In this document: piece after piece, positions 5,642 through 15,513 of the stretch
Position numbering within the stretch: the first letter of the stretch is position 1
Layout of the letters: every line of letters begins with the position of its first letter
DNA from: an uncultured archaeon
Lineage (GTDB): Archaea; Iainarchaeota; Iainarchaeia; Iainarchaeales; JAAZKV01
NCBI GenBank assembly: GCA_964551375.1
Contig: CAZKBG010000001.1
Coordinates: 300,001 to 332,000 of the forward strand
DNA length: 32,000 nt
Reading direction: 5' to 3'
Position numbers and translations under genes: made by a program
Notes under the pieces: generated by a model
What the model saw: the letters and a program-made list of their open reading frames with translations, nothing else
Database searches by the model: none
Told to the model about the DNA's origin: nothing

Positions 5642-5863
5642 CTAGTCAGAATCATAGTCTTCAGAAGCAGAATCACTGCCCTCTTCTTCCTCTTCATCTT
5701 CCATTTCAAGCTCTTTGCTTTCAATAAGCTTTAGATTTCCTTTCTTGTCAGCAACGATGGTGTATTCAAGATTGCATTCAGGGCAAGCCACTGCGTCCCC
5801 TTCTTCCATATCCACGACTTCAACGTCAAAACGCGCCTTACATTCAGAGCAAAGTTTCTTCAT
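5642..5863 (-). CDS. LysW-like zinc-ribbon protein with poly-acidic C-terminal tail (candidate carrier or substrate protein)
   Basis: 73 aa. It has CxxC-17-CxxC (CSEC...CPEC) with the GDAVACPECNLEYTIV strand pattern seen in LysW/ArgW. The tail is ELEMEDEEEEEGSDSASEDYDSD. A TATA box lies upstream. Confidence 0.7.
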   Translation of the reverse strand: MKKLCSECKARFDVEVVDMEEGDAVACPECNLEYTIVADKKGNLKLIESKELEMEDEEEEEGSDSASEDYDSD

Positions 5864-5903: not shown

Positions 5904-5978
5904 TCTTACTTGTCTTTCAAATCAGCGATTAAGCAAGTTATATGCGGTTTATTAGGGGCTCGCTTAAAAAAAAGCGAA

Positions 5979-6685: not shown

Positions 6686-7204
6686 CTAAAGTTCTTTTTT
6701 CATTAAAACATTATCCACTGATTTTTTGGAAACTATTGAAGCATTTTTCAAAAGCCCGTACTTTTCAAACCCAAGCTTTTTGTAAAGCTTAATTGCGGCA
6801 AGATTATTCTTATCCACTTCAAGAATCAAAAGGCTCCTGTTTTTTGAAAGCTCATTTATTACAAACTTCATTAATTTTGTTCCGATTCCTTTTCTTCTCA
6901 TTGAACTGTTTACAACAAGGGACAAAATCTGCGCCCTGTGCTTGTGAATGCTTTTGCCAAGCACCACCCTGACGTGAGCAACAACTTTCCCGTTAGAAAT
7001 TGCAACATATCTATGGTCTTTTTTCCGCCTTGTAGCTGCAAGTTTTTTTTGAACAGAAGCGCGCTTCCAGTGAGGAAACAGAGAATGAACTTCATTAATC
7101 AAGTTGAGCGAAGAATCCTTCAGCTCAATAAACTCAAGAGTGGGCATTTCTTGCCGCCTCATCTTTTTCATCTTCAATTCTAAATCTTTTTCTCTCGCTT
7201 GCAT
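6686..7204 (-). CDS. GNAT family N-acetyltransferase (RimI-like)
   Basis: Acetyl-CoA-binding motif RRKGIGTKLM and the C-terminal A-IKLYKKLGF-x-G motif. Alternative ATG starts at 7162 and 7147 would reduce the 71-nt overlap with the upstream gene. Confidence 0.85.
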   Translation of the reverse strand: MQAREKDLELKMKKMRRQEMPTLEFIELKDSSLNLINEVHSLFPHWKRASVQKKLAATRRKKDHRYVAISNGKVVAHVRVVLGKSIHKHRAQILSLVVNSSMRRKGIGTKLMKFVINELSKNRSLLILEVDKNNLAAIKLYKKLGFEKYGLLKNASIVSKKSVDNVLMKKEL

Positions 7205-7583
7205 CCTTTGAATCCTTCACCTTATTAGTCATGTGAGTTCTTGAAACATCAATAATAAAATTATTATGAATAATATCTCTTCCGATGATTATTGGATAAG
7301 GCAAACCTTCCCTGTCTTCAATATTAACTCCGGTCTTTATTTTTTTTCCTTTAACTAGAATAGTTGCCTGAGCAATTGCCCTTCTTGTATAACCTCTTGG
7401 CGAACTTGCGCTCTTTACTTTCACGCTTGAAAAAATAGGCCCGATTCCCGCTTTTGCGGCAAGCTTAACATCAAGACAAGTTCTTGTGGCGCCTGTATCA
7501 AACAAAGCCTTTTTGCTCACAAGCCCTTTTTTTCCTTTTATTCCAACAGTTTCAACAAGACCTATTATTCTTTTTTTAGCCAT
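7134..7583 (-). CDS. retropepsin-like aspartic peptidase of the RimK-associated family (often annotated 'ATP-dependent zinc protease')
   Basis: 149 aa. It has the D-T-G-A catalytic motif (ALFDTGATRTCLD) and the C-terminal YPIIIGRDII...IIDV motif typical of this small single-domain family. Confidence 0.75.
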   Translation of the reverse strand: MAKKRIIGLVETVGIKGKKGLVSKKALFDTGATRTCLDVKLAAKAGIGPIFSSVKVKSASSPRGYTRRAIAQATILVKGKKIKTGVNIEDREGLPYPIIIGRDIIHNNFIIDVSRTHMTNKVKDSKDASERKRFRIEDEKDEAARNAHS

Positions 7584-7664: not shown

Positions 7665-7681
7665 AAAAAAATCGCTGATTT
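7665..7681 (+). promoter_or_regulatory. shared intergenic motif AAAAAAATCGCTGATTT (copy 1), in the divergent promoter region
   Basis: The 14-mer AAAAAAATCGCTGA recurs exactly at 12855-12868. The 12-mer AATCGCTGATTT recurs on the minus strand at 5919-5930. All three copies are intergenic. Confidence 0.4.
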
Positions 7682-7802: not shown

Positions 7803-8720
7803 ATGAACATTCTTATTATTGCAGAAAAAAGAACGCAAGTTAAGCCGTACATTGACTCGCTCACTGAAAGAGGACAGAGCCCAAAATACATAAGGGTTTC
7901 AAAAATAACTCTTGTAAGCAAGCAGAATGAAACTTTAATCAAATCTCTTGGAGAAGAAGTTGAAGCATATGACGCGGTGTTTATCCAGACACGCACCTCG
8001 CTTGCTCCATTCATTGAACCCCTTCTTGAAGAGCTTGAAGCGATTAATTCTTACACAAGCATAAAAAAAGGCTCATACTTTACTGGATGGAACGAGCCAT
8101 ACCAGTTTGTAACTCTTGCTCTTGCAAGCGTTCCCACTCCAAAGACAATAACAACCGCAAGCGTGAAAAATATTGAGCAACTTTCAAAGAAAATATCCTA
8201 CCCTATTTTGATTAACACTTACATTGGAAAGAAAAACCAGCAGACGCTTGTGATTAACAGCAACAGAGAGCTTAACGGATTTGTAAAAAGCATAAAAACA
8301 GAAATTGACGGATTCATGATAAGAGAATTTATTGAAGGAAATGTAATCTCAAGCATAATTGTCGGAAAAAAGACTTTTTCTGTAAAGCGAAACTATAACG
8401 GAGAAGAAGTCGAGCCGATAAAAAGCGGAAAATATTACACAATGACAGAAAGCGAAAATGAAACCGCAATAAAGGCAGCAGCCGCATGCGGGTACGACAT
8501 TGCAAGAGTGGACATGATAAAGGGAAAAGTAATCAAAGTAACTCCAATGTTTTCAATTGAAGATTTTAACAATATCTGCTCGGTAAAAATTGAAGACTCT
8601 GTTGCGGACTTTTTAATCGAGATGGCAAAAAAGCACGAAAACAAAGTGCTTGCGCCTTACGACTTTTTGGGGCTAAAGAAACTCTTAGGAAAAACAATAC
8701 TAAAGGGGCTGTTAAAATGA
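7803..8720 (+). CDS. RimK-like ATP-grasp paralog with degenerate active site (probable pseudoenzyme or adaptor)
   Basis: 305 aa, colinear with RimK. The ATP-binding VVK...GxGV loop is replaced (LINTYIGKKNQQ). The GDxRxN-HRGG motif is absent. The Mg-binding E-x-N is replaced (VIKVTPMF instead of xxEVNxxPG). Confidence 0.7.
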   Translation: MNILIIAEKRTQVKPYIDSLTERGQSPKYIRVSKITLVSKQNETLIKSLGEEVEAYDAVFIQTRTSLAPFIEPLLEELEAINSYTSIKKGSYFTGWNEPYQFVTLALASVPTPKTITTASVKNIEQLSKKISYPILINTYIGKKNQQTLVINSNRELNGFVKSIKTEIDGFMIREFIEGNVISSIIVGKKTFSVKRNYNGEEVEPIKSGKYYTMTESENETAIKAAAACGYDIARVDMIKGKVIKVTPMFSIEDFNNICSVKIEDSVADFLIEMAKKHENKVLAPYDFLGLKKLLGKTILKGLLK

Positions 8721-9622
8721 AGCACGGAAAAAGCCTCTTAATCATCGGCTCAAAGAATTTTAAAAAATCAACAGTGAATGCGCTTATTGAAGAAGCAAAG
8801 AACAGATTTGTTTCAGTATTGTTTGTTCCGATTGATAAAATACAAATCCAAACATCCACAGGAAAGGTCGGAATTTTTTACAAAGGGAAAAACCTTCTTG
8901 CGTTTGATGTGATTTATCCAAGAGTTTCATCAAAAGACTTTTTGCTTGGAGAAACCGTTCTAAAAACAATAGAAAGCTCAAACGCATACACCCCCGTAAC
9001 GCTTGACGCTTACCAAGTTACTAATCACAAATTTTACACTTCTCAAAAACTTTCAAACGCAAAAATCCCAGGACTTTTAAGCACTCTTTCAATTTCCCCA
9101 AAATACGCTGATTATGCGGTGAATGAAACAGGATATCCTTTTGTAATGAAAATACTATCAGGATTTGCTGGAAAAGGAGTTGTTCTTGTTAATTCAAAAG
9201 AGCAGATGGAAAGCATACTTGACGCAATGCACTTATTTGAAGAATTTATATGCACTCAAAAATTTATCAAAGGAAAAGACTATGACATCAGATGCTATGT
9301 TATCGGCGATTATGTGATTGCAGTTAAAAGAAAAGCAAAGAAAGGGGATTGGAGGGCAAATATTTCAAGAGGCGGCTCTGCTTCGCTCATAAACCCCACT
9401 CCTGAAATACTTGATGTCGCAAAAAAAGCAGCAAAGGTTCTGAAGATGGACATATGCGCAGTTGATTTAATGGAGCTAAAAAACAAATGGGTGGTAATTG
9501 AAGTAAACTTTATGCCGGGGCCGTTTAGAAAATTCCTTGGAACAATGGTGGTTCAGGAATGGATGAGACTTTTAGCCGACAAAGCCGAGAAAAAAACCCT
9601 TCTTTTAACCAGCGGGCCTTAG
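8717..9622 (+). CDS. rimK: RimK-family ATP-grasp alpha-L-glutamate (amino acid) ligase
   Basis: 301 aa with strong colinear similarity to E. coli RimK: DIRCYVIGD, KKGDWRANISRGGSA, CAVDLM...VVIEVNFMPG. Its start overlaps the upstream stop as ATGA (8717-8720). Confidence 0.9.
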   Translation: MKHGKSLLIIGSKNFKKSTVNALIEEAKNRFVSVLFVPIDKIQIQTSTGKVGIFYKGKNLLAFDVIYPRVSSKDFLLGETVLKTIESSNAYTPVTLDAYQVTNHKFYTSQKLSNAKIPGLLSTLSISPKYADYAVNETGYPFVMKILSGFAGKGVVLVNSKEQMESILDAMHLFEEFICTQKFIKGKDYDIRCYVIGDYVIAVKRKAKKGDWRANISRGGSASLINPTPEILDVAKKAAKVLKMDICAVDLMELKNKWVVIEVNFMPGPFRKFLGTMVVQEWMRLLADKAEKKTLLLTSGP

Positions 9623-9661: not shown

Positions 9662-10804
9662 ATGCTTAGGCAAAACAATCATTTTCACGATTACACAAGG
9701 CTTGACCAAAAAATCTGCCAGCTTGCAAGCGCAATTGAAACTAACGTTTTAGCATACATAAGCCCGCAAAATCTGGCTGGAGAGAAAAAAAAGTTCTTTG
9801 AAGCAATAAGCAAAAATGAACAATACAACCCGATATTTTCATACATTCCAAGAAACCCTGTTTTTTCATACTTTAACATGTCGCCCACATTCAGCACATA
9901 CAAAATGGAGCTAAAAGAACTCCTTATTGAAATCGGAGATGATTCGCTTGACCTTATTTTTGAAAAAAAGATAATTGACTTATTTGACCGAATGGAAATG
10001 CTAAGAAGCGTAGGTACTGAAAACTTTACCGGAAACGCTGAGTCATATTACGGAGGAGTGGATAATGCGACAGTCAGATTTGCAAAAGAATTTTTATCAA
10101 AAAACTTTGAGCCTGAAGAAAGGACTATCCCGTACGAAGAAGCAAAAAAGGTAATTGAAGAATTCCTTAAGAAAAAAAGATTAACTTATAAAATCAGCAA
10201 AAAAGAAACCGCTGGCTCCAAATTTTCGGTAAATATAAGAACAAAAGAAATTCTAATCAATCCAAACTATCCATTTTCAAAGAATTCGCTCAAAAGACTT
10301 ATTGCGCATGAAATTGAAGGGCATATTTACAGATACGAAAACGGATTAAGACAGCCTTACAAAATATTTTCAAGAGGATTAAGCCGAGAAACGCTCGAAA
10401 CAGAAGAAGGAATTGCAGTTTATGTTGAGCAGCAGCAGGGAATCAACATTGATTCGCAGTTAAAAGAATACTCTGGCAGAGTGCTTGCAATCTCAACTGC
10501 CATGAAACAATCATTCTATGAAACATTTCTTGAACTAAAAAAATACTTTTCTGATGAGGACGCATTTAACATCACAGTGAGGGCAAAAAGAGGGGTGTAT
10601 AGGCAGGATCAAGGAGGCGCTTTTACAAAAGACGCGCTTTACCTAAAAGGAATGCTATTAGTCCAGGACTTTTTAACCAAACAACCCATAAATGAACTTT
10701 ACTACGGCAGATACGCGACAAGCGATACTCCGCTTGTGCTTGACATTGACGGGCTAATAAAGCCAAAATACATGCCTGAATTTACAAAAGCAAAAAAACA
10801 ATAG
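9662..10804 (+). CDS. DUF1704/MATCAP-like metallocarboxypeptidase (QEGLA-motif family), paralog 1
   Basis: 380 aa. It has an HExxxH motif (AHEIEGHIYR) followed by ETEEGIAVY, the equivalent of the family QEGLA motif. Confidence 0.75.
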   Translation: MLRQNNHFHDYTRLDQKICQLASAIETNVLAYISPQNLAGEKKKFFEAISKNEQYNPIFSYIPRNPVFSYFNMSPTFSTYKMELKELLIEIGDDSLDLIFEKKIIDLFDRMEMLRSVGTENFTGNAESYYGGVDNATVRFAKEFLSKNFEPEERTIPYEEAKKVIEEFLKKKRLTYKISKKETAGSKFSVNIRTKEILINPNYPFSKNSLKRLIAHEIEGHIYRYENGLRQPYKIFSRGLSRETLETEEGIAVYVEQQQGINIDSQLKEYSGRVLAISTAMKQSFYETFLELKKYFSDEDAFNITVRAKRGVYRQDQGGAFTKDALYLKGMLLVQDFLTKQPINELYYGRYATSDTPLVLDIDGLIKPKYMPEFTKAKKQ

Positions 10805-12854: not shown

Positions 12855-12868
12855 AAAAAAATCGCTGA
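12855..12868 (+). promoter_or_regulatory. shared intergenic motif AAAAAAATCGCTGA (copy 2)
   Basis: Exact 14-mer match to 7665-7678. A shorter AAAAAAATCGC copy lies at 13015-13025. It sits in the divergent intergenic region between 12764 and 13111. Confidence 0.4.
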
Positions 12869-13110: not shown

Positions 13111-14532
13111 ATGTTTTCACAAACTGATAATCAAAAACAGCCGACTCCTGTTTCTCCAATTGCAGAAGTTAAAACAAACGGCGATGCTAAACAAACTGCG
13201 GAAGTAAAACAAAACGGCGAAATAAAACAAAAAGGAAAGACAACAGAAAACCCCAAGAAATTTTTATTCATTTCATTTGAAAGCCTTAGCGGAGATTTGG
13301 CTTGGCAGATTAAAAAAGAAGGACATGAAGTAAGAGCGTTTATTGAATCAGAAGCTGACAAAGATGTTTATGAAGGATTTTTGGAAAGAGTTGACGCTTG
13401 GGAAAAATTTGTTGACTGGGCGGATGTTATTATCTTTGATGATGTTGGATTCGGCGGGCAGGCAGAAGAACTGCGCGCAAAGGGAAAGCTTGTTGTAGGC
13501 GGAAGCAAATACACTGACAAGCTTGAAGAAGACAGAGAATTTGGGCAGAATGAAATGAAAAGAGTTGGAATGGATGTTCTCCCCCACTGGGATTTTAATG
13601 ATTTTGGAGAAGCAATTGAATTTATCAAAAATAATCCTGGAAGATATGTTTTCAAGCCTTCAGGAACAGTGGCATCAGACCAGAAAGGAATACTTTTCTT
13701 GGGACAGGAAGAAGACGGCAAGGATTTGCTTCAGATATTAGAACAAAACAGAAAACTTTGGGCAAGAAAAATAAAAAGATTCCAGCTGCAGAAAATGGCG
13801 GTGGGAGTGGAAGTGGCAGTAGGAGCATTCTTTAACGGAAAAGATTTTGTTCTGCCAATAAATGTTAATTTTGAGCACAAAAAACTTTTCCCGGGAGAAC
13901 TTGGGCCATATACAGGAGAGATGGGGACTTTGATGTTCTGGTCCCAGCCAAACGACATATTCCACCGAACTCTTGAAAAAATGAAAACAGATCTCGCAAA
14001 ATCAGGATATGTTGGATATGTTGATATTAACTGCATAGCAAATGCAAAAGGAATCTTTCCGCTTGAATTCACATGCCGGTTCGGCTACCCGACAATAAGC
14101 ATCCAGCTTGAAGGAATCACAAGCGAAATTGGAGAAACATTTTACAAAATGGCGAAGGGAGAAACTTTTGAAATCAAAACAAAAAAAGGATTCCAAATAG
14201 GAATATGCATAGTTGTTCCGCCATTCCCTTTCAAAGACCAGAAAGAATCTTACATTTACAAAGATCTTTCAATTTTATTCAAAAAACCAAATCTTGACGG
14301 AGTGCACCTTGGAGAAAATAAATTGGTAAATGATGTTTGGACAATTGCGGGAGAAACAGGATATGTTCTTGTAATAACAGGCTCTGGAAACACCGTTGAA
14401 GAAGCAAGAAAACAGGCATACTCAAGAGTTAAAAATATCATGATACAAAACATGTACTACCGAACTGATATTGGACTAAGATGGTTCTCTGATTCGGATA
14501 AACTGCATACAGAAGGATACCTTTTCAGCTGA
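13111..14532 (+). CDS. PurD-like ATP-grasp ligase (phosphoribosylamine--glycine ligase family, divergent)
   Basis: 473 aa. FEHKKLFPGELGPYTGEMGT aligns to the PurD DGDxGPNTGGMG loop. PLEFTCRFGYP aligns to EFNxRFGDPE with N replaced by T. The N-terminus carries a K/Q-rich extension with a 2x36-bp repeat. Confidence 0.7.
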   Translation: MFSQTDNQKQPTPVSPIAEVKTNGDAKQTAEVKQNGEIKQKGKTTENPKKFLFISFESLSGDLAWQIKKEGHEVRAFIESEADKDVYEGFLERVDAWEKFVDWADVIIFDDVGFGGQAEELRAKGKLVVGGSKYTDKLEEDREFGQNEMKRVGMDVLPHWDFNDFGEAIEFIKNNPGRYVFKPSGTVASDQKGILFLGQEEDGKDLLQILEQNRKLWARKIKRFQLQKMAVGVEVAVGAFFNGKDFVLPINVNFEHKKLFPGELGPYTGEMGTLMFWSQPNDIFHRTLEKMKTDLAKSGYVGYVDINCIANAKGIFPLEFTCRFGYPTISIQLEGITSEIGETFYKMAKGETFEIKTKKGFQIGICIVVPPFPFKDQKESYIYKDLSILFKKPNLDGVHLGENKLVNDVWTIAGETGYVLVITGSGNTVEEARKQAYSRVKNIMIQNMYYRTDIGLRWFSDSDKLHTEGYLFS

Positions 14533-14563
14533 AAAATGCTTTAGCGCAATTTGATGTGAAAAA

Positions 14564-14977
14564 ATGACCGCAAAGAAAAAACTAATTCAAAATTTATTGA
14601 ACACTTACTGCAGATTGCGGAAATCAAAATCACACGGAGTAGGGGTATTTGCCATACGCGAGATTCCTAAAGGAACTAATCCATTCAAATTTGAAAAACC
14701 TCAAAGCTGGGTCAAAATAAGCGCAGAAGAAGTAAAAAATGCCCGCGCAGAAGTAAAAGAAATGATTGACGCATTTTATGTAATCAAAAAAGATGGAAGT
14801 TTTTGGGCAAATTCAGGCGGGTTAGCCTCAATGGGAATGTCATTTTACATGAACACTTCAAAAAAGCCGAATGTAAAAACAACTGATGACGGGGCGAATT
14901 TCAAAACAACAAGACTGATAAAAAAAGGCGAAGAGCTTTTAACAGATTACTCGGATTATGACTGGAAATATGAATAG
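14564..14977 (+). CDS. SET-domain-like protein with degenerate NHS motif
   Basis: 137 aa. It has GVGVFAIREIPKGT (GxG SAM pocket) and KKGEELLTDYSDY (ELxxDY). The NHSCxPN position reads MNTSKKPN. Confidence 0.6.
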   Translation: MTAKKKLIQNLLNTYCRLRKSKSHGVGVFAIREIPKGTNPFKFEKPQSWVKISAEEVKNARAEVKEMIDAFYVIKKDGSFWANSGGLASMGMSFYMNTSKKPNVKTTDDGANFKTTRLIKKGEELLTDYSDYDWKYE

Positions 14978-15030
14978 CACTAATATAAAAATACATTAAA
15001 TTAATTTTATTTAGAATAACTGGTGAGCAA

Positions 15031-15513
15031 ATGGGGAAATATCCTTCAAAAGTAGTATTGAATCATTACGGCAAAGCGCTTATTGCAAAAAAAACAATTC
15101 CTGCAGGGACTGTTGTCGAGAAATTTGAAGGAAAAGTAATTTCGTATAATGAAGTTCCACTCGATATGATATGCTATGCAATTTATGTTGGGGAAAACGG
15201 CGCTGATGAATGGGTTGTTTCCAAAACAAACGCAATTTATGCAAACCACTCCTGCGAGCCGAACTGCTCAATTGACGATGAGCTCAACATATTTACAACA
15301 AAAGAAGTGAAAAAAGGCGAGGAATTAAGTTACAGCTACAACCGCCTTGAAGAAGACGAAAATGAAAAAGATTATATTTGGGACAAGAGATGGAACTTTG
15401 AATGCAAATGCGGTTCGCCAGTTTGCCAGAAAAATGTTAACGGATATGTGAAGAAAAAGAAAGAAGTAGAATATGCAAAAATAACTACCCGCCTAAATGA
15501 CCGCTTGCATTAA
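15031..15513 (+). CDS. SET-domain protein lysine methyltransferase with Cys-rich post-SET motif
   Basis: 160 aa. It has the canonical ANHSCEPNC motif, KKGEELSYSY and a post-SET-like CKCGSPVCQ. A GGTGA ribosome-binding site lies 4 nt upstream of the ATG. Confidence 0.85.
   Translation: MGKYPSKVVLNHYGKALIAKKTIPAGTVVEKFEGKVISYNEVPLDMICYAIYVGENGADEWVVSKTNAIYANHSCEPNCSIDDELNIFTTKEVKKGEELSYSYNRLEEDENEKDYIWDKRWNFECKCGSPVCQKNVNGYVKKKKEVEYAKITTRLNDRLH

Follow-up and report, generated by a model that had tools for sequence, protein, structure and literature searches.

This analysis concerns a pair of adjoining genes in a 32,000-nucleotide stretch of DNA from an uncultured archaeon of the Iainarchaeota (contig CAZKBG010000001.1, positions 300,001 to 332,000; hereafter the window). 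The two open reading frames (ORFs), GraspA (ORF A) and GraspB (ORF B), encode relatives of the RimK-type ATP-grasp ligases, of which B carries the catalytic residues of the family and A has lost most of them. Taken together, the evidence favors, with moderate confidence, the view that A would be a non-catalytic partner subunit of the ligase B in a module that ligates and trims tails, the physical A-B complex being argued by analogy. Both ORFs lie where the initial annotation had placed them, and the ATGA overlap that joins them is seen directly in the sequence. The features are as follows:

7803 to 8720, forward strand: GraspA (ORF A), 305-residue catalytically degenerate paralog with a predicted RimK fold
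8717 to 9622, forward strand: GraspB (ORF B), 301-residue RimK-family ATP-grasp ligase, canonical by its residues
8717 to 8720, forward strand: ATGA start/stop overlap of A and B, read from the sequence

The source genome, that of a tiny archaeon of symbiotic type, measures 1.09 Mb with 38% G+C, is 93% complete, and has no RimK-type genes other than A and B; related contigs are labeled Candidatus Iainarchaeum, Forterrea, and Diapherotrites (= Iainarchaeota, DPANN). B scores 103.1 bits against PF08443 (cut-off 21) and 156.3 bits against TIGR00768 (cut-off 143.4), and the RimK pre-ATP-grasp domain Rimk_N is matched as well. RimK structures of E. coli (5ZCT/4IWX) and Pseudomonas are found at E-values of 4e-34 to 1e-32, with 4e-34 for E. 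coli. The protein carries equivalents of RimK K100, K141, the Gly-rich loop, D187, R189, R203, R211, N213, the RGG turn, D248, E260, and N262, and all 14 of the scored ATP, magnesium, and catalytic positions are invariant across 45 distinct B orthologs. With profile scores above their cut-offs and every scored catalytic position present, the claim that the downstream paralog is fully canonical stands, and B is, as judged from these features, a canonical RimK-family ATP-grasp ligase. Neither of two narrower assignments is reached, as B scores 128 bits against the E. coli RimK equivalog NF007764 (cut-off 331) and 112.5 bits against the LysX equivalog (cut-off 275.6). The amino acid that B would add to a carboxylate is most likely L-glutamate.

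A is a weak, full-length match to the same family, with 26.8 bits against PF08443 (cut-off 21) and 41.5 bits against TIGR00768 over residues 5-265, under the cut-off of 143.4. It aligns with B from end to end at 22% identity (E 4e-11). The AlphaFold2 model of A has a predicted local distance difference test score (pLDDT) of 87.3 and a predicted template modeling score (pTM) of 0.84, and a Foldseek search with this model returned template modeling (TM) scores of 0.81-0.87 to RimK structures (7QYR/5ZK6), a root-mean-square deviation of 2.3 Å to 7QYR, and nothing other than RimK entries at ranks 1-22. The end-to-end alignment and the modeled fold agree with the proposal that A keeps the length and layout of RimK, and the RimK three-domain fold is retained in the predicted structure.

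The active site is another matter. The positions below are numbered as in E. coli RimK, window B, and window A, and the counts are over 75 distinct members of the A family; the correspondence of the magnesium-binding E-x-N pair (E260 and N262) is taken from phmmer and A-B alignments, a MAFFT alignment with E. coli RimK being two columns off.

K100: B K105; A E98/P99
K141: B K145; A N138; K in 56 of 75
G148 and G150: B G152 and G154; A N145 and Q147; Gly in 0 of 75
D187: B D190; A V181; D in 0 of 75
R189: B R192; A S183; R in 0 of 75
R203: B R205; A R196; kept in 60 of 75
R211: B R213; A gap; R in 0 of 75
N213: B N215; A P205; N in 0 of 75
RGG turn: B RGG; A SG with a three-residue deletion
D248: B D250; A D237 (kept); D in 26 of 75, K in 37 of 75
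E260: B E262; A T247; E or D in 27 of 75
N262: B N264; A M249; N in 9 of 75

Each motif that the initial annotation had described as missing from window A is in fact replaced or absent. VVK reads ILIN (N138 for K141), the GxxGxGV ATP loop reads GKKNQQ, DIR reads VIS, the RxN and RGG blocks are absent where the three-residue deletion falls, and the magnesium-binding IEVN has become VIKVTPM, with T247 for E260 and M249 for N262. The equivalents of G148, G150, D187, R189, R211, and N213 are kept in none of the 75 family members, and none holds the full catalytic set. A is thus, by its residues, unable to perform canonical ATP-grasp chemistry. The annotation requires one correction, in that window A is among the most degenerate members of its family as aligned and the family consensus is less so. 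Alignment and fold comparison place no ATP- or magnesium-binding residues at shifted positions in window A; in relatives, some of these residues (the equivalents of K141, E178, D248, and E260) are in part retained.

Such remnants would be expected if A were a nucleotide-binding regulatory subunit that switches B on or off, in the manner of a pseudokinase-like ATP/ADP sensor. The ADP-contact core of Pseudomonas RimK includes K141, E178, and I180 (PMC10092738). In the A family the E178 equivalent is nearly invariant, the K141 and R203 equivalents are kept at the frequencies listed above, and the D248 and E260 equivalents persist in a minority. Against this, window A has N138 and T247, the Gly-rich loop is gone in 75 of 75 members, and Lys stands at the D248 position in 37. 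Because these residues have been lost family-wide or in part, nucleotide binding does not appear to be a conserved requirement of the A family, and a sensor role is considered unlikely.

The second line of evidence is the persistent coupling of the two genes. A survey of the phylum covered 215 Iainarchaeota genomes in 79 genera, of which 88 genomes and 35 genera, almost all within one order, carry the A-B pair, always with the B-type match directly beside the A-type match. An A without an adjacent B gene was met only at contig ends, and B was fragmented in one locus (L024). In that locus, which belongs to an Iainarchaeum metagenome-assembled genome (L024:6543-7558), B is split into three ORFs beside an intact A, by either an assembly error or decay of B. 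Among 47 distinct A/B junctions, 42 overlap, and a Shine-Dalgarno-like site, defined as at least 4 nucleotides complementary to the 16S 3' end, precedes the B start in 38. The window junction fails this strict 4-mer test and carries only the G-run AAGGGG. The junctions and the G-run are as follows:

NTGA overlap of 4 nucleotides: 35 of 47 junctions
Overlap of 8 nucleotides: 5 of 47 junctions
Overlap of 1 nucleotide: 2 of 47 junctions
Gap of 0-4 nucleotides, the largest being 4: 5 of 47 junctions
8705 to 8708, forward strand: G-run AAGGGG, a weak Shine-Dalgarno-like site 8 nucleotides before the B ATG and inside the 3' end of A

Since the Shine-Dalgarno-like site is also found in families whose A has a different C-terminus, it is not merely a by-product of the coding sequence. 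The coupled translation of A and B proposed earlier is well supported by a tight overlap that has been kept across an archaeal order, and the arrangement is not due to chance. What the start/stop coupling shows, as read from the gene layout, is co-expression of A and B and not the ratio in which they are made.

Co-expression and co-inheritance are no proof of contact, and A could instead work alone, as a poly-glutamate or peptide binder or as a peptidase adaptor, and be merely co-expressed with B. The peptidase partners, described below, differ between families and A is constant, as such a role would allow. On the other side, outside contig ends no examined locus with A lacks an adjacent B gene (fragmented in L024), and a tight start/stop overlap has been maintained across an order. 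Moreover, the known RimK-type ligases, whose substrates are bS6, LysW, or cofactors, are homo-oligomers, which makes a paralog of like fold a natural candidate for heteromer formation. The chance that A acts without B is therefore judged to be small.

It is also conceivable that A is still an enzyme, with an unconventional active site or another chemistry. An invariant Arg (R196, the R203 equivalent), E175, and a conserved block (SLAPFIEPLLEEL, NEPY) indicate a strongly constrained site. Throughout the family, however, A lacks the magnesium ligands, the phosphate loop, and both of the catalytic Arg/Asn positions, and to our knowledge no ATP-grasp enzyme works without them, which leaves this reading very improbable.

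A has also been maintained by selection. There are 61 close homologs of near-fixed length (305 residues) and 38-97% identity, and the wider A-like family comprises about 37 clusters when grouped at the 50% level. The ratio of nonsynonymous to synonymous substitution rates (dN/dS), taken over five independent close pairs, is 0.05-0.17 for A vs 0.02-0.11 for B; A evolves about 1.5-2 times faster, B being 75% identical where A is 57%. Over 24 aligned members of the 305-residue subgroup (38-63% identical to window A), 26 columns are invariant. These values indicate that A is under purifying selection and is not decaying. The idea that A is a functionless duplicate and a pseudogene in progress, to which its lost catalytic residues and faster evolution might lend color, is for practical purposes refuted by the selection data, together with a frame intact in more than 70 genomes and a confidently modeled fold. 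In a maximum-likelihood tree, A and B each form one clan (100/99 for both) and A is not nested in B, which argues that A is an old lineage co-inherited with B and not a recent tandem copy; the tree thus points to a single old origin followed by co-inheritance.

Residues 283-305 of A (8649-8717) form a conserved basic amphipathic tail with the consensus ...KTIFGRFLK, which AlphaFold2 predicts to be disordered apart from one short helix. The tail is confined to the 305-residue subgroup, and the A proteins of other families (270-290 residues) are tail-less. It may serve in docking or membrane binding.

A mechanism can be proposed on this basis. B would do the catalysis, as a RimK-type ATP-dependent ligase joining an amino acid to a carboxylate, and A would be an ancient dead relative of the same fold, translated by coupling from the same mRNA. 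As an obligate non-catalytic partner, A would replace some of the subunits of a RimK-type tetramer, in which it may hold the substrate in place, serve as a scaffold, or modulate the activity of B. The oligomeric state of RimK on which the original proposal drew is borne out by the Pseudomonas enzyme, a tetramer (PMC10092738).

Several observations weigh against this arrangement. Co-inheritance and coupling would equally fit two proteins that work in sequence without forming a complex. The K141 and E178 equivalents survive in most A members and those of D248 and E260 in some, so that relatives may bind nucleotide. No gene matching Ribosomal_S6 (bS6), no PF01118 match for a LysY/ArgC-type enzyme, and no CofE was found in the 93% complete genome to supply a known RimK-family substrate; bS6, the LysW pathway, and F420 are not supported as substrates of B. 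Fusions likewise offer no precedent for a dead subunit. Two tandem RimK-RimK proteins exist (P0153 and P0198); inspected by eye, P0153 has two intact halves. Neither protein is A-type, and as a Rosetta-stone link for A and B these fusions were set aside as uninformative.

The pair is surrounded by genes for peptidases and other enzymes, given below with a zinc-ribbon protein discussed further on.

5642 to 5863, reverse strand: LysW-like zinc-ribbon protein, its long acidic tail ending in EDYDSD; a weak candidate substrate
6686 to 7204, reverse strand: RimI-like GNAT acetyltransferase, overlapping the 3' end of the RimB-like gene
7134 to 7583, reverse strand: RimB-like retropepsin-type aspartic peptidase with a DTGA motif, divergent from A
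9662 to 10804, forward strand: MATCAP/DUF1704-like metallocarboxypeptidase 1, HEIEGH, PF08014 159.8 bits
10835 to 11923, forward strand: MATCAP/DUF1704-like metallocarboxypeptidase 2, HEVETH, PF08014 180.7 bits

The RimB-like protein matches PF05618 (33.3 bits), Asp_protease_2, and, weakly, NCBIfam RloA3; it contains FDTGAT and has no signal peptide. RimB-like genes occur in 56 of the 215 genomes, all 56 with the A-B pair, and adjoin A in every locus with mapped gene order and in the listed coordinates compared. The GNAT protein scores 71.7 bits against PF00583 and 67.6 bits against TIGR01575 (under the cut-off of 86.4), and its gene lies beside the RimB-like gene in most loci. In the window the two frames overlap by up to 71 nucleotides (7134-7204) if the longest GNAT ORF is taken. 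Relatives mostly have a 4-nucleotide overlap or a short gap, and thus the GNAT start is probably at a later ATG.

Both MATCAP-like proteins exceed the PF08014 cut-off of 27 bits and contain the HExxxH zinc motif. MATCAP genes are present in 49 of the 215 genomes, and all 49 have the A-B pair, even where the MATCAP gene is on another contig or 93 kb away. As this co-occurrence holds when the genes are unlinked, it provides linkage-independent support for a function shared with A and B. The slot that follows the first MATCAP gene is taken in relatives by a second MATCAP gene, an M29 peptidase, or a third ATP-grasp, or is empty. A third RimK-like ATP-grasp replaces the second MATCAP in three loci (L029:10277-11212, L031:10170-11309, and L033:10249-11235), and an M29/NicX-like peptidase occupies the slot in L004 and L032. 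Other families of the order have a variant operon (L071:6733-10862 and L074:6737-10818) in which a 524-residue protein with matches to an MscS-channel beta-domain and a C39-like peptidase domain precedes A, B, and a further gene. This last gene encodes a third RimK-type ligase in L071 and an FGase-family amidohydrolase in L074, the divergent genes encode an M29 peptidase and an IMP dehydrogenase, respectively, and no RimB-like or MATCAP gene was found in either variant operon. The module therefore consists of a constant A-B core and a variable peptidase part.

By analogy with Pseudomonas RimK-RimB, writing would fall to B and erasing to the RimB-like and MATCAP-like enzymes, and the module as a whole would add short acidic tails to a protein or peptide and remove them again. 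One protein of the neighborhood has a tail of this kind. The LysW-like protein has 73 residues and is encoded about 2 kb upstream of A; its tail, which counts about 25 acidic residues, is the most acidic C-terminal tail of the genome. The protein scores 24.5 bits against the LysW model NF041070, under the cut-off of 75, and its six best fold matches in the PDB are all LysW (E 7e-3 to 0.2). The tail Tyr and the LIESKxLEM block are invariant in 13 relatives. Its gene adjoins that of CysRS in most relatives, a tight linkage that is to CysRS and not to the A-B pair, and the ribbon occurs in many genomes without any RimK-type ligase. Family f11 has the pair in 13 of 13 genomes and the ribbon in 0 of 13 at the threshold used, family f12 has the pair in 4 of 23 and the ribbon in 15 of 23, and family f30 has the pair in 0 of 4 and the ribbon in 4 of 4. 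This phyletic pattern does not track the pair, and the protein was rejected as an obligate substrate. As a target of A and B in the window it is a weak candidate, possible and doubtful.

A more specific proposal, an archaeal "tail code", would be that A is the pseudoenzyme subunit by which a heteromeric RimK-type ligase recognizes its target, that this ligase lengthens the acidic C-terminal tail of one particular protein, possibly the LysW-like one, and that the MATCAP-like and RimB-like enzymes erase the extension. Stated in this full form, the scheme is quite unlikely and is offered as speculation.

Some further features of the window are recorded here. A divergent PurD-like ATP-grasp gene (GARS_A 48 bits) followed by two SET-domain genes lies at 13111-15513 on the forward strand, and the same trio is found near the cluster in relatives L002 and L006. 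The sequence ATCGCTGA stands at 5922-5929, 7671-7678, and 12861-12868, upstream of the LysW-like gene, A, and the PurD-like gene, and the window contains 4 copies vs 0.76 expected. It is missing from both spacers in 15 of 15 relatives, one of which has an A 89% identical, and it was rejected as a conserved regulator site. A scan for sigma-70-type promoters and terminators, a model unsuited to archaea, found no more sites in the window than in shuffled sequence.

What gives these genes their wider interest is that A appears to be a conserved, selected, and dead RimK-fold partner coupled to a live enzyme across an order of genome-reduced archaea. That a module of about 6 kb has been kept in a genome of 1.09 Mb argues for an important role. 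The pair marks a putative ligation and trimming system in organisms without the RimK substrates that were checked (bS6, the LysW pathway, and F420), and the co-occurrence of MATCAP with A and B offers a testable handle on the role of prokaryotic MATCAP/DUF1704 proteins. Full-text literature searches on pseudoenzyme partners of ATP-grasp or RimK proteins and on prokaryotic MATCAP biology returned nothing describing this arrangement, and A-B would be the first enzyme-pseudoenzyme pair of the RimK family in the literature searched.

The closest known systems are both bacterial, namely RloABC, described below, and the RimK-RimB(-RimA) system of E. coli and Pseudomonas, which carries out poly-alpha-L-glutamylation and trimming of bS6/RpsF. 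In Pseudomonas, RimK adds glutamates to the RpsF C-terminus and also makes poly-alpha-glutamate; RimB binds to RimK, and it both trims the poly-Glu and stimulates the ligase (PMC10092738; PMC11957791; PMC11957051). Both systems have an intact RimK-family ligase, here B, and the ligase genes of the window lie beside a RimB-like DTGA retropepsin without a signal peptide; the bacterial RimK is also oligomeric and regulated by a bound partner protein. The window differs in its archaeal host, whose genome contains no bS6, in the dead RimK-fold paralog that is not part of the bacterial system, and in the addition of MATCAP-like carboxypeptidases and a GNAT, with no RimA seen.

The RloABC system of P. 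aeruginosa comprises a secreted retropepsin, a seven-transmembrane (7TM) inactive transglutaminase, and the ATP-grasp RloC. It shares with the archaeal module the combination of an ATP-grasp ligase and a retropepsin, and the archaeal sister variant has a C39-like (papain/transglutaminase-like) membrane protein. Rlo has one ATP-grasp, no dead paralog, and a secreted peptidase, whereas the window peptidase lacks a signal peptide and the window contains no C39-like membrane protein. The LysX/ArgX-LysW systems are a conceptual parallel and resemble the window in having a RimK-family ligase and a small zinc ribbon with an acidic, aromatic-containing tail in one neighborhood. However, of the enzymes that process the LysW conjugate further (LysZ, LysY, LysJ, and LysK), the LysY/ArgC type is without a match in the genome, the tail ends in EDYDSD rather than EDWGE, the ribbon is distributed independently of the ligase pair, and LysX needs no dead paralog.

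Two eukaryotic systems offer parallels. In trypanosomatid prozymes (AdoMetDC and deoxyhypusine synthase), a dead paralog is reported to form an activating heteromer (PMC5201418; PMC3663545). The likeness, a conceptual one, is that a dead paralog is kept under selection beside an active enzyme; fold, chemistry, and domain of life differ, and an activating heteromer of A and B would be a putative extension of the parallel. The tubulin tail cycle (TTL/TTLL and MATCAP) offers an analogy only, as TTL/TTLL belong to another ATP-grasp clade and no tubulin-like target was identified here. It nevertheless combines, as the window may, ATP-grasp writers with erasers of the MATCAP family that remove C-terminal residues from acidic tails. 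If A and B do extend the acidic tail of a specific protein, the archaeal module would be the prokaryotic equivalent of the eukaryotic cycle of tubulin tyrosination and glutamylation, to which it might in evolution have contributed parts.

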